Of a stretch of 64,000 nt of DNA, positions 3,847-7,678 are shown piece after piece (position 1 is the first letter of the stretch; each line of letters begins with the position of its first letter). The notes under the pieces are model-generated. The model searched no databases, was not told the DNA's origin, and was given only the letters and a program-made list of their open reading frames with translations. Location: contig CAZLFV010000002.1 in NCBI GenBank assembly GCA_964558915.1, forward strand, positions 20,501-84,500. The letters run 5' to 3'. This stretch comes from an uncultured Eubacteriales bacterium (lineage in GTDB: Bacteria; Acidobacteriota; Aminicenantia; Aminicenantales; UBA8522). Position numbers and translations under genes: made by a program.

Positions 3847-4623
3847 TTAGGGCTGGAGGCTCCTCTTCCGTTCATCGACGATCCGCTGGTATTCGAGAGG
3901 ATGGAGGAGCCGGAGTTCTTTCCCGGTGATTTTTCCGTTGAGCCAGATCTTGCTCATCGGAAAGACCTCGGGGTTGAGATGGACGTTATACATGTGCCAG
4001 ATGATGACCGCCAGAAAAGCGAGCAAAGCCTCATAACCGTGGATCATCACAAGGACATCATGAATCCAGAGGGGGAAGAACCGGAGCGAAAGCTCGACGT
4101 TCCACATGAAGAACCCGCTGATGATCATCACCACCGAGCCCCAGCCAACGGCCCAGTATTCGAACTTTTCGATGAAATTATACCGGCCGAAAAGCGGCGG
4201 CTTCTCGAAAAGCCAGTAGCGGTGAGCCTCGAAGAATTTTTTAAAGACCCCCGTTTTATAAATAAGGCGGGTCAGCCCGACGTTGTGCCAAAAGAGTTCG
4301 AAGGCATCTTTGCCGTCGCGGAACTTGGGGATCATGTCTTTGAGGTTATTCTGGCCTCGGGCCGTCAGAGCCGCGGAGAGGATGTGCCAAATGAGATTCA
4401 GGATCAAAACGACCGCAGCTATCCTGTGGATGATCCCACGGATATAGAAAACTTGCTCCGTCGGGAAGAACCACTTGAAGGCCTTGAATTCGTAGAAGAA
4501 AAGAGGGAGCCCGGTGGCCATCAGCAGGAAGAACGTCCCGATTAGGAGATAATGCTGGACTCGTTCAGCGAGATTCATCCGCAGGAAGACCTCGTCGTCG
4601 GGGACAAGGGCAGAGCTATCCAC
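3847..4623 (-). CDS. Membrane dihaem b-type cytochrome, FdnI/HydC (Ni-hydrogenase cytochrome b) like
   Basis: 258 aa with four predicted TM helices. Conserved His sit in helices 1, 2 and 4 (VQHYLLIG, IIHRIAAVVLILNLIWHIL, VMIHGYEALLAFLAVIIWHMYNVH). Overlaps the upstream 11-haem gene by 8 nt, suggesting translational coupling. Confidence 0.7.
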   Translation of the reverse strand: MDSSALVPDDEVFLRMNLAERVQHYLLIGTFFLLMATGLPLFFYEFKAFKWFFPTEQVFYIRGIIHRIAAVVLILNLIWHILSAALTARGQNNLKDMIPKFRDGKDAFELFWHNVGLTRLIYKTGVFKKFFEAHRYWLFEKPPLFGRYNFIEKFEYWAVGWGSVVMIISGFFMWNVELSLRFFPLWIHDVLVMIHGYEALLAFLAVIIWHMYNVHLNPEVFPMSKIWLNGKITGKELRLLHPLEYQRIVDERKRSLQP

Positions 4624-5860
4624 GTTTTTCCCTTCTGATCATCCGTCTGAACAGGTCCGCAGCGATAAACAGGATGAAGACCGAAATAATAACCGAGATC
4701 ACGATAATGTAGATATTCTTAACGAGATGAGAGGCCTTGTATTTGGCCATGGCAATCGCCTCGGGGATCACATGAACCGGCCCCTCGGCAAAGTGGCGGC
4801 TGGCCCCGGGATGGCATTTGCCACAGGTAGCGGGCAGGTTTTCGGAGTTGATGGAAGATTTCGGGTCCGCGGAGGGCCGGATATCGTGAAAACCGTGGCA
4901 GGAAGCGCAGTTGGCCACGCGCGTCTCCCCGTATCTCGAAGCGGTTCCATGAAAGGTTTGGCTGTACGTTCTAAACCGCGATGTGAGAAAGCCGTACTCC
5001 CGGCTCAAGGCCACGTTGTCATGGCAGCGGGAACAGACCTCTGCAACCTTGGTTGTATACACCGTCGAATTCAAATCCTGGGGAGAAAGGATATTATGTT
5101 CGCTATGGCAGTCGGTGCAGACCGGAACGTCCTTGATCCCTTTGACATAGTCTTTGCCGTGCACTCCATCGAGATAGTCCCGCTGGATGCCGACGTGGCA
5201 TGTTCCACAGGTTGGGATGATGTTTTTTCGGGAGACCAGGGCGAGAGGATCGCTGACTGTCTTGATGTCATGGGCCCCGTGGCAGTTACTGCAGTTGGCT
5301 GATATTGTCAGCCCGGATTTCTTAAGGGCCCTGAAGTGAACGCTCTCCCGGTATTGACCGATAAACCCCGGTTCTTTTTTGGCCGCCACTCTCTGGAGGT
5401 GACATTTCTCGCAGGTGGAGGGGAGATTAATCGGGAATATGGTCGAGTCATATTCTGACTTGCCCTTGATGTCATGCGTCCCGTGACAATCCTTACAACT
5501 GACGGTGAGAGGGTTTGCGCCGGTCTCTGGGGCCATAAAATGGATGCTTGTCTCGAATTCCCGGCTGGCCTCCTCATGGCAACGGCTGCAGTCGATGGGT
5601 TTCAACGGAGAAGAATGGGGATAATCCCTGATTTTGGCCAGGTCGGCATGACAATCGACGCATGATATTTCTGCCCGACCGTGGCTGGAGGCCAGAAATT
5701 TTTCGTAATCCAAGAAAAGGGATTCTCCGGCTTCGGACTTGAGCTCGGCGTCTCCGTGGCAGGCAAGGCAGTCCTCGTTTGACTGGGAGGGGAAAAGGGG
5801 CGAGGCCGAGCTGAATATAATAAAGATAGCCCCGAGAATAACGGCTTTGCCTTGACCCAT
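4616..5860 (-). CDS. Undecahaem c-type cytochrome with signal peptide and C-terminal TM anchor
   Basis: 11 CxxCH motifs: CLACH, CVDCH, CSRCH, CKDCH, CEKCH, CSNCH, CGTCH, CTDCH, CSRCH, CASCH, CGKCH. Shows a repeated CxxCHGxHDI paired-motif pattern. N-terminal signal peptide; C-terminal hydrophobic helix [22 protein letters not shown]. Confidence 0.9.
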   Translation of the reverse strand: [414 protein letters not shown]

Positions 5861-5864
5861 GGCG

Positions 5865-7127
5865 CTACTTTTTCAAAAGGCTTATTCTTTTGACGAAGCC
5901 GGGAATGAACCAGAGCACAGTGACGACGAGAACGGCGATGAGCAGGACAAGGAGGATCCTTTGAATATAAAACAGGGAAGGCGGGTTTTTTTGAGCGGCG
6001 CCGATGTGAATCTTGGCCGTGGCGATCTTTTCGGGCATATTCGGATGGCAGCTCGGCTGTCCGCAGGTCTTCCGCAGGTTGGCCGGGTTGATTTTGGACA
6101 GGGGATCAGAAGCCGGCCGGATGTCATGAGCGCCATGGCAGCTTGTACAATTGGCTGCGGCTTTATAGCCGAACCCGACGGCGATCCCGTGCAGGCTGTC
6201 GATGAACGTAGGTATCCGGTCTTCGGGCACCCCATATTTCTGCATGATTTCCGGCCGGGCGTGGCAGACCGAGCAGGTATCGATGACTTTGCTGAAAGAA
6301 GCAGGCGAACCGGTTTCTTTGGGTGAGGCGATGCCGTGCTCTCCGTGGCAGTCGACACAGAGCGGAGCATCGACATTCCCAACCAGGGCCTGCTGGCCGT
6401 GGAGGCTCTGCTTGTACTCGCCAAAAATGAGCTCGTGGCAGCGGCCGCAGGTCTGAGGCTGCTTGGCCATGATATGGGGCTCGCCGACGCCTTTGATGTT
6501 GTGGACGCCATGGCAGTCGGTGCAGACGGCGGCGAACTGGACAAGCCCTTTTTCAAAAAGGGCCTGGCCGTGAACGCTCTTCATGTATTCGTGATAAGGC
6601 ATTTCGCTGTGAATGTTGTACTTGATGACGACGTGCATATCTTCATGACAGGCCGAGCAGGTGAGGGGGATGTTCTTCCTGTTGACCGAGGATTCGGGGT
6701 TTCTGGCAGGCCGGATATTGTGCTTTCCGTGACAATCCCAGCACCTGGCCACCTCGCTGACTCCTCTTTCAAGGTAGGCCCGGCCGTGGACGCTGTCAGG
6801 GTAAGAAAGAGGAGTCTGTCCCTCCCCGGCCAGGCCGCTTTCACGATGACAGACGGCCGTGCAATTGACATCCGGAAGTTTCTTTTTATGGGGAAGATCT
6901 CCTTCTCGCTCTTCGGGCCGGACGAGATGGCAATCTGTGCAAGCGAGGAAAGCGTGCGCTGACCCGAGAAAATTTTTTTCATTAATCCTGAGGCTTTCGC
7001 TGACTTCCGCTTGGGAGCCGTGGCAGGCCAGGCACCGGGCGTTCACAGAGACGGTCTTTTCTGGGCCGGCCCAAAGGAACCCGATAGCGACGAGAAGAGA
7101 TAAAATGGTTACTTCAGGTTTTCGCAT
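5865..7127 (-). CDS. Undecahaem c-type cytochrome, paralog of 4616-5860, with C-terminal TM anchor
   Basis: 9 canonical CxxCH plus CTAVCH (CX3CH, nt 6846-6863) and CGQPSCH (CX4CH, nt 6045-6065). Both variants sit where the paralog has canonical sites. Same signal-peptide and C-terminal anchor architecture ([21 protein letters not shown]). Confidence 0.9.
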   Translation of the reverse strand: [420 protein letters not shown]

Positions 7128-7153
7128 CCAAAAAATGAACGATAAACACCGGT

Positions 7154-7678
7154 CTATTTTGTCGCCGGTTTGTCGTGTTTGATCTTTTCCCAGGCTGCTG
7201 CATAATCGAACGCGATGCCGTGGGCGTTCTCATGGCAGGTCAGGCAGTACTTTTTGGCAGCATCCGCAGACTCATACAAGATGAGGCCGTTCTTCTGGGC
7301 CAGGGCTCTGTCTTTCATGATGGAGAGTTTTTTGTATTCGCTTCCCGGGCCGTGGCAAACCTCGCAGGTGTCGCCTTCCGCCTTGAGTTCAGGAGCCTTC
7401 TCGAAGAGAGGCGCGTGGCATTTAAGACACTGGGGGCTTTCAGCCGGGTTCTCGACTCCGGCGGCTTGGGCTTTCGGTGCGGCTTCAGGAGAGCTGAGCG
7501 CGGCGAAGGACACGGAATGCTTGGACTTCTGCCAGATCGGATGCTGCTGGCCCTGGATTTCCGTTTTGTGGCAGATCGCGCACTTGGCCGACCCCACGTA
7601 GGAAAAAGTCTGGGCGAACAGGCTGATGAGCAAAACCGCGGCAACGATGACGACAAGCAAGACGACCTTTTTCATCAT
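7154..7678 (-). CDS. Tetrahaem c-type cytochrome (cytochrome c554-like family)
   Basis: CAICH, CLKCH, CEVCH, CLTCH. The motif GSAKCAICHKTEIQGQQHPIWQKSKH is typical of the c554-like family. I place the start at MMKKVVLL, preceded by GGGAGG. The ORF-track start at 7747 overlaps the promoter -35 box. Confidence 0.85.
   Translation of the reverse strand: MMKKVVLLVVIVAAVLLISLFAQTFSYVGSAKCAICHKTEIQGQQHPIWQKSKHSVSFAALSSPEAAPKAQAAGVENPAESPQCLKCHAPLFEKAPELKAEGDTCEVCHGPGSEYKKLSIMKDRALAQKNGLILYESADAAKKYCLTCHENAHGIAFDYAAAWEKIKHDKPATK

Follow-up and report, generated by a model that had tools for sequence, protein, structure and literature searches.

What do four closely packed cytochrome genes on the minus strand (3847-7747) of a 64,000-nucleotide window, the whole stretch analysed here, do for the uncultured Aminicenantes bacterium that carries them? 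The genes encode a c554-like tetrahaem cytochrome c, two undecahaem cytochromes c, distal (M11d) and proximal (M11p), and a dihaem cytochrome b, and they lie behind a promoter-like site in an 18-kb cytochrome island that also holds nonahaem, Rieske/cytochrome b and NrfH-like modules, a HAO-like octahaem and, upstream, an MtrAB-type conduit. An earlier, sequence-only reading had proposed that these genes form a quinol module like Geobacter CbcL with its parts separate and duplicated. The four open reading frames (ORFs), their coordinates, the paralog peptides it quoted and an 8-nt gene overlap were all borne out. We consider it probable, though well short of certain, that the genes specify a split, duplicated menaquinol:cytochrome c oxidoreductase of the CbcL/CbcBA type, with electrons flowing outward to the outer-membrane conduit of the island. 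The features are as follows:

3847-4623, minus strand: FdnI-type dihaem cytochrome b, 258 aa, 4 transmembrane (TM) helices
4616-5860, minus strand: proximal undecahaem cytochrome c (M11p), 414 aa
5865-7127, minus strand: distal undecahaem cytochrome c (M11d), 420 aa
7154-7678, minus strand: c554-like tetrahaem cytochrome c, 174 aa from the ATG at 7678
7747-7719, minus strand: sigma-70-like promoter match TTGACA-17-TAAAAT, 11/12 consensus positions

The tetrahaem and M11d genes are separated by 26 nt and the M11d and M11p genes by 4 nt, while the cytochrome b gene starts with a GTG codon 8 nt inside the end of the M11p gene, in a different reading frame. The promoter-like site, a consensus pattern match only, falls inside the 123-nt gap ahead of the tetrahaem gene. 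Nothing resembling a terminator was found after the cytochrome b gene, and no regulator gene adjoins the module.

The cytochrome b matched Pfam Ni_hydr_CYTB (PF01292) with 45.4 bits (cut-off 30.1); the host genome, 87% complete, contains no other PF01292 gene. Its best NCBIfam match was TIGR01583, the formate dehydrogenase gamma subunit, at 47.6 bits, far under the equivalog cut-off of 115.85. The sole PDB sequence match obtained with HMMER was E. coli FdnI (1kqf_C). In this alignment H24, H66, H195 and H210 fall on FdnI H18, H57, H155 and H169, which we take to be the haem ligands, and N149 falls on N110, presumably part of the pocket for menaquinone or 2-heptyl-4-hydroxyquinoline N-oxide (HQNO); these roles were reportedly assigned from the Fdn-N structure by Jormakka et al. 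in 2002. All five residues were invariant in 23 homologs, as were H80, H188 and H215, and N149 lies inside the invariant motif RYNFxEK (GRYNFIEK in the protein itself). H24 and H210 are thus the putative ligands of the cytoplasmic-side haem and H66 and H195 those of the periplasmic-side haem, with a putative quinone site containing N149 at the cytoplasmic face.

The AlphaFold2 model of the cytochrome b (predicted local distance difference test, pLDDT, 74) has four long helices, and FdnI was its only significant fold match (E 2.7e-5, template modelling scores 0.61/0.72). The loop between TM2 and TM3 is long, basic and highly conserved, and the C-terminus is basic; both fit the FdnI topology, in which the two termini are cytoplasmic. 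The likeness to FdnI (1KQF chain C) therefore covers the four-helix fold, the four haem histidines and the Asn110 equivalent, and it extends to a partner that adds one C-terminal TM helix, as FdnH does. The two proteins differ, however, in sequence (about 18% identity), in a conserved insert of 65 residues on the cytoplasmic side, between TM2 and TM3, and in the three additional invariant histidines, and here the partner is a multihaem cytochrome rather than an iron-sulphur/molybdenum enzyme. The FdnI/HydC-type assignment of the sequence-only reading is well supported by the family match, the alignment and the fold, and its check on the axial histidines found all four in place.

M11p begins with a hydrophobic signal segment, has 11 CxxCH motifs and carries a single C-terminal TM helix (residues 383-401) followed by a basic tail. 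M11d has the same plan, with a strongly hydrophobic end helix at residues 391-409, and makes up its 11 sites from nine CxxCH motifs plus CTAVCH (CX3CH) and CGQPSCH (CX4CH), each of which aligns exactly to a canonical motif in M11p. The two proteins are 35% identical over 385 residues (BLASTP, E 1e-69), so that the paralogy proposed for them holds. The combination of signal segment, end helix and basic tail places the haem domain in the periplasm, the site of c-type haem attachment, and the tail in the cytoplasm, as the sequence-only reading requires. An alignment of 39 homologs of both paralogs showed the 11 motif histidines and exactly 11 others to be invariant (H60, 82, 107, 129, 175, 197, 234, 255, 304, 325 and 363). 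With 22 invariant histidines for 11 haems, bis-His ligation is probable throughout, as expected of electron-transfer haems, and no catalytic site would be open.

The undecahaems are built from repeated dihaem units (C-x2-CH-G-x-H-x-I, 28 residues, C-x2-CH), and the haem spacing of M11p (36, 24, 31, 28, 40, 28, 30, 28, 42, 28) recurs as a series in relatives with 5, 6, 11, 19 and 23 haems and in the neighbouring nonahaem (7802-9085). The haem count seems to grow by repeated units of the same spacing. Each anchor keeps its own motif from phylum to phylum: F-I-A-x-D-L for M11p, W-[FV]-[IV]-P for M11d. This suggests a specific helix packing for each paralog; it is no proof of one shared b subunit. 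A profile search with the undecahaem gave local matches to NrfA, MtrA and NrfB only and no solved homolog. The family is a large one: more than 6,600 cluster representatives match, nearly all annotated merely as 'CXXCH cytochrome family protein'.

Natural fusions show that the cytochrome b and its anchored haem protein belong together. At two loci (L059 and L067), one reading frame covers the cytochrome b together with a pentahaem version of the undecahaem (haems 1-4 and 11) and the anchor helix of that version. A b-subunit relative at E <= 1e-30 was present in 90 of 401 sampled Acidobacteriota genomes, in many cases inside a long frame, and the regions that we fetched encode single proteins in which an M11p-like domain is followed by the anchor helix and the b domain. 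Where the fused haem domain has 11 haems, it is 33-37% identical to M11p over the full length, and the b domain 31-36% identical; fused versions with 6, 19 and 23 haems also occur (range among relatives 5-23). The domain order in the fusions is a c domain outside, an anchor helix running from out to in and a b domain with its N-terminus inside. Because relatives encode both as one polypeptide, the anchored cytochrome c and the cytochrome b are, by this genomic evidence, parts of one working unit.

A word-index search assigned the fused proteins to Geothrix species and Holophagaceae; Geothrix is a cultured, Fe(III)-reducing, electrode-active genus. A tblastn search of plasmids with a fused homolog gave no match, and the five Acidobacteriota genomes searched for a CbcL-type protein yielded the five-helix family only. 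Two loci from Geothrix-type genomes carry full fusions of an 11-haem domain and an FdnI-like b domain in tandem (L099, 848-2710 and 2762-4930; L103, 1240-3420 and 3536-5452), the fused counterpart of the duplicated module.

The b-subunit alignment, used to scan a single genome of each species, matched about 230 species genomes, mostly Aminicenantes; the other carriers are Terriglobia, Abyssobacteria, Poribacteria, Eisenbacteria, Glassbacteria and unnamed lineages. Across the 65 loci with enough upstream sequence, which come from several phyla, the order M11d-M11p-cytochrome b was found in 36 and M11p-cytochrome b, with M11d absent, in 16, so that an 11-haem gene of the M11p type stands directly upstream of the cytochrome b gene in 52/65. 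The haem genes are shortened or fragmented in nine of the remaining loci and fused in frame in two. In Aminicenantes the full order is resB-ccsA, NrfH-like 18-haem, Rieske, cytochrome b, nonahaem, c554-like, (M11d), M11p, FdnI-like b. The genes downstream of the FdnI-like b gene vary among these genomes, which places the end of the module at that gene. The flanks are unrelated in Abyssobacteria, Poribacteria and Terriglobia, and the neighbours of the three-gene core in the other phyla are housekeeping genes with no relation to it.

Some Aminicenantes have cut-down haem subunits between the c554-like gene and the cytochrome b gene (6346-7008 in L049 and L050; also L058 and L068); one such form is a 220-aa pentahaem with haems 1-4 and 11, and an even smaller form occurs. 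At the other extreme, 19- and 23-haem relatives of the undecahaems lie beside many modules, as ORFs of about 925-970 aa in L020, L041, L048, L073 and L085 and at L101 1918-4746 and L100 1519-4881, and some such relatives are fused to a cytochrome b of their own.

In a maximum-likelihood tree of 56 sequences, M11d and M11p formed separate groups with support of 100/100 and 99/95, respectively. Each group spans Aminicenantes as well as genomes of the Abyssobacteria/Poribacteria type, and their internal orders are congruent. Two congruent clades that each cross several phyla imply that the M11d/M11p pair is, on the phylogeny, old rather than the product of a local event, and that it has been inherited or transferred as a unit. 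The duplication noted in the original proposal is real; it is an ancient pair shared by several phyla and not something that happened at this locus. In the tree, M11p from loci that lack M11d branches within the M11p of loci that have it (L055 beside L054, for example), a pattern that indicates repeated loss of M11d. Where M11d is retained its peculiarities are retained as well: CX3CH at haem 3 and CX4CH at haem 11 were present in 41/41 orthologs examined.

The remaining gene, preceded by a GGGAGG ribosome-binding site ahead of its ATG at 7678, encodes a protein with four CxxCH motifs that matched Pfam Cytochrome_C554 (PF13435, E 4.6e-10) and, as best PDB match, N. europaea c554 (1bvb, E 8.6e-4). 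The match to NF043010 (CycA), at 39.2 bits with an equivalog cut-off of 400, is at family level only. The signal peptide looks cleavable (xxA|Q), and after cleavage the tetrahaem is probably soluble in the periplasm. Like N. europaea c554 (CycA, 1BVB/1FT5), it would be a periplasmic tetrahaem PF13435 carrier, linking a multihaem enzyme or wire to a quinone-reactive cytochrome in the membrane; it is shorter than c554, matches it weakly and shows no nitrifier context. Only Aminicenantes have the gene; other phyla lack it. Within Aminicenantes it stays with the module at loci that have no Rieske/cytochrome b cassette, and it therefore belongs to the module, where it had been placed initially, and not to the cassette. 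The accompanying stoichiometry, 26 haems on one quinol-binding subunit, is unsupported: the tetrahaem is probably soluble and M11d is dispensable in many genomes.

How does this arrangement compare with known quinol modules? CbcL (GSU0274) consists of a nine-haem, bis-His N-terminal domain fused to a six-helix b domain of the HydC/FdnI type (Zacharoff 2016; PMC6295460), and its authors inferred cytoplasmic proton release and no contribution to the proton-motive force. Fused CbcL/MtrH/MtoC homologs have been catalogued in 15 phyla, with 3-23 haems and 416-1034 residues; most have six helices and a few five or four, they often lie beside mtrAB or mtoAB, and they occur in Fe(III) reducers and Fe(II) oxidisers alike (Zhong & Shi 2018, PMC6295460). 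The module shares with this family a periplasmic multihaem cytochrome c, a TM helix and a dihaem b of the FdnI/HydC type, the lack of an iron-sulphur, flavin or molybdenum subunit, a variable haem number (5-23 here), frequent proximity to mtrAB-type genes and an implied cytoplasmic-side quinone site. For a CbcL-type protein, Table S2 of the same survey gives haem cysteines at positions 35, 58, 83, 106, 130, 160, 188, 231 and 259 and the first helix at 287 (PMC6295460); the final haem gaps are thus 24, 30, 28, 43 and 28, against 24, 31, 28, 40 and 28 in M11p, a likeness by layout only. In contrast to CbcL, the module has two overlapping genes, 11 haems instead of nine, an added M11d paralog and a c554-like carrier.

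A parallel in gene organisation is CbcBA (GSU0593-0594, Cbc5), a quinol oxidase for extracellular acceptors made of a four-helix dihaem b and a seven-haem c; the C-terminal anchor of CbcA supplies the fourth b-haem histidine, the hydrogenase-b-like CbcB having three, and many uncharacterised clusters of b plus multihaem c occur in Geobacter (Joshi, Chan & Bond 2021, 10.1101/2021.04.15.440034). Here too a separate four-TM dihaem b accompanies a multihaem c with a C-terminal TM anchor. The module differs in having 11 haems in place of seven and all four histidines in the b subunit (the FdnI pattern), with anchors that have no conserved histidine, and its gene order, c then b, also sets it apart. 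CbcBA is regulated by sigma-54 and BccR, whereas a sigma-70-like site was seen here, the sigma-70-like pattern being the only one scanned. The idea of a CbcL-like system with separated parts is thus upheld by the natural fusions in relatives, while the split itself is not new, CbcBA being already split (10.1101/2021.04.15.440034). By analogy, the module may work like CbcL/CbcBA, departing from CbcL in the latter's fusion and six helices and from CbcBA in its seven haems and divided histidine set. No NCBIfam model exists for CbcL, MtoC, MtrH or CbcBA.

In the outward reading that we favour, menaquinol (menA is present in the host genome) would be oxidised at the cytoplasmic-side site, and the two b haems would carry electrons across the membrane to haem 11, the M11p haem nearest the membrane. 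From the haem wire of M11p they would pass to the soluble c554-like tetrahaem and/or to M11d, and then through the nonahaem and the upstream MtrAB-type conduit to an extracellular acceptor such as Fe(III). M11d, with its two variant haem sites, would be an accessory wire of ancient origin, second to M11p. With electrons moving outward and protons set free in the cytoplasm, the route would conserve no energy, possibly being assisted by the membrane potential (Δψ), and would form a low-yield branch beside the Rieske/cytochrome b and NrfH-like quinol oxidases, as has been argued for Geobacter CbcL. The iron-transport genes found beside the module in Terriglobia-type and Poribacteria-like loci (feoB, fur-feoB) are in keeping with this reading as well.

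Several points weigh against this proposal. The direction of electron flow is not readable from sequence, and the CbcL/MtoC family is found in both Fe(III) reducers and Fe(II) oxidisers. We infer homology to G. sulfurreducens CbcL/CbcBA from layout, and the whole scheme is built on sequences and models. The module would have 1+4 = five TM helices compared with six in CbcL, with none after TM4, although the five-helix state does occur in the published family. Confidence in the AlphaFold2 model of M11p is medium (pLDDT 74.7), and the model lacks a good structural neighbour, a Foldseek search of the PDB giving weak partial matches to HAO/HDH (template modelling score about 0.3). Docking of M11d on the same cytochrome b is a proposal only, and the link to the upstream MtrAB-type conduit comes from gene neighbourhood.

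The same components could in principle run in the opposite direction. The electrons would then come from Fe(II), from reduced humics or from the HAO-like octahaem whose gene lies upstream, enter through the c554-like carrier and the haem wires and reach the b haems, with menaquinone reduced at the cytoplasmic face and protons taken up there. The module would in that case be a quinone reductase that generates a proton-motive force, a redox half-loop like Fdn-N and the HAO-c554-cM552 system of nitrifiers. The FdnI architecture and the cytoplasmic-side quinone site are typical of a quinone-reducing enzyme, CbcL/MtoC homologs do occur in Fe(II) oxidisers, and a c554-family tetrahaem and a HAO-like octahaem sit in the same island. 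However, the module is found without c554 or HAO in other phyla, and Geothrix, the nearest cultured carrier of fused homologs, reduces Fe(III). Aminicenantes are anaerobic, moreover, and no high-potential terminal oxidase is evident in the island. We therefore regard inward flow as unlikely.

A doubtful explanation, which we place lower again, is that the module uses quinol to reduce a soluble substrate in the periplasm, the foremost candidate being chelated Fe(III) for iron acquisition, with no role in a conduit to the cell surface. This idea draws on the surroundings of the module in other phyla. In 7/7 Terriglobia-type loci (L073, L074, L075, L081, L082, L083 and L086), feoB follows the M11p-cytochrome b pair immediately, and in two Poribacteria-like loci fur and feoB lie 2-3 kb downstream (L090, 9155-11612; L091, 10270-12726). 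This neighbourhood hints at an iron-linked role for the single-wire form. Most non-Aminicenantes loci, moreover, have the core alone, with no porin-cytochrome genes within 7 kb. Against this, 22 to 26 haems would be lavish for an assimilatory reductase, all of the haems appear to be bis-His and leave no open catalytic site, and in the host genome the module sits in the 18-kb cytochrome island while feoB is on another contig, with no linkage to it. The automatic annotation of the last gene as a 'cytochrome b subunit of formate dehydrogenase', that is, a formate dehydrogenase or hydrogenase anchor, has the source annotations and the best NCBIfam match on its side and is rejected with near certainty, given the shortfall from the TIGR01583 cut-off, the neighbours of this sole PF01292 gene (cytochromes c and carA, with no FdnG/FdnH or hydrogenase genes adjoining), its overlap with M11p and above all the fusions of b to a haem protein in relatives, which effectively refute it.

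Returning to the outward, CbcL/CbcBA-type reading, its architecture, concept and split form are already known from Geobacter. By contrast, we did not find the 11-haem split family, its duplicated form with the invariant CX3CH/CX4CH sites, its breadth outside Desulfuromonadia or its FeoB linkage described in the literature searched. A bolder and improbable extension is that M11d, M11p and the FdnI-type b form a distinct, ancient three-subunit complex, distributed from Aminicenantes to Poribacteria, in which two 11-haem wires with conserved anchors would share one b subunit. The CX3CH (haem 3) and CX4CH (haem 11) sites of M11d would then set a second redox window and so branch or gate the flow by potential, and in Terriglobia the single-wire form would act as a quinol-driven ferric reductase linked to FeoB.

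Aminicenantes, which abound in anoxic sediments, have mostly been portrayed as fermenters. That an 18-kb cytochrome island here contains an intact module leading from quinone to periplasm is an argument that they are capable of respiration with extracellular partners, iron minerals for instance, or of electron uptake from them. Surveys for the fused protein miss split forms, to which they are blind, and the family is thus far more widespread than catalogued, as the species genomes recovered with the b subunit alone illustrate. The universal CX3CH/CX4CH pair of M11d would provide a clean test case for the tuning of a haem wire by variant haem attachment, and, Geothrix being culturable, its fused homologs make the whole family accessible to genetics.

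Some smaller observations concern the surroundings of the module. The nonahaem of the Rieske/cytochrome b cassette (7802-9085, minus strand) is built like the undecahaems, with the same type of haem spacing, CxxCHGxH repeats and a C-terminal anchor, and is 25-29% identical to them; it belongs, more distantly, to the same superfamily of anchored cytochromes. The Tenderia 'undecahaem' UetJ was considered as a relative and rejected: it is an extracellular protein from an unrelated cluster, with a different architecture. On the other side, a 500-nt gap (3346-3846) separates the cytochrome b gene from carA. It contains a plus-strand ORF of 81 aa (3513-3758) with no Pfam match, whose start resembles the N-terminus of a sugar aminotransferase and which is possibly a gene remnant. 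Finally, several public metagenome-assembled genomes with this Aminicenantes-type island (L018-L022, L026, L029 and others) are titled 'uncultured Eubacteriales/Clostridia bacterium' or 'Candidatus Desulfaltia', names that probably do not reflect their real taxonomy.

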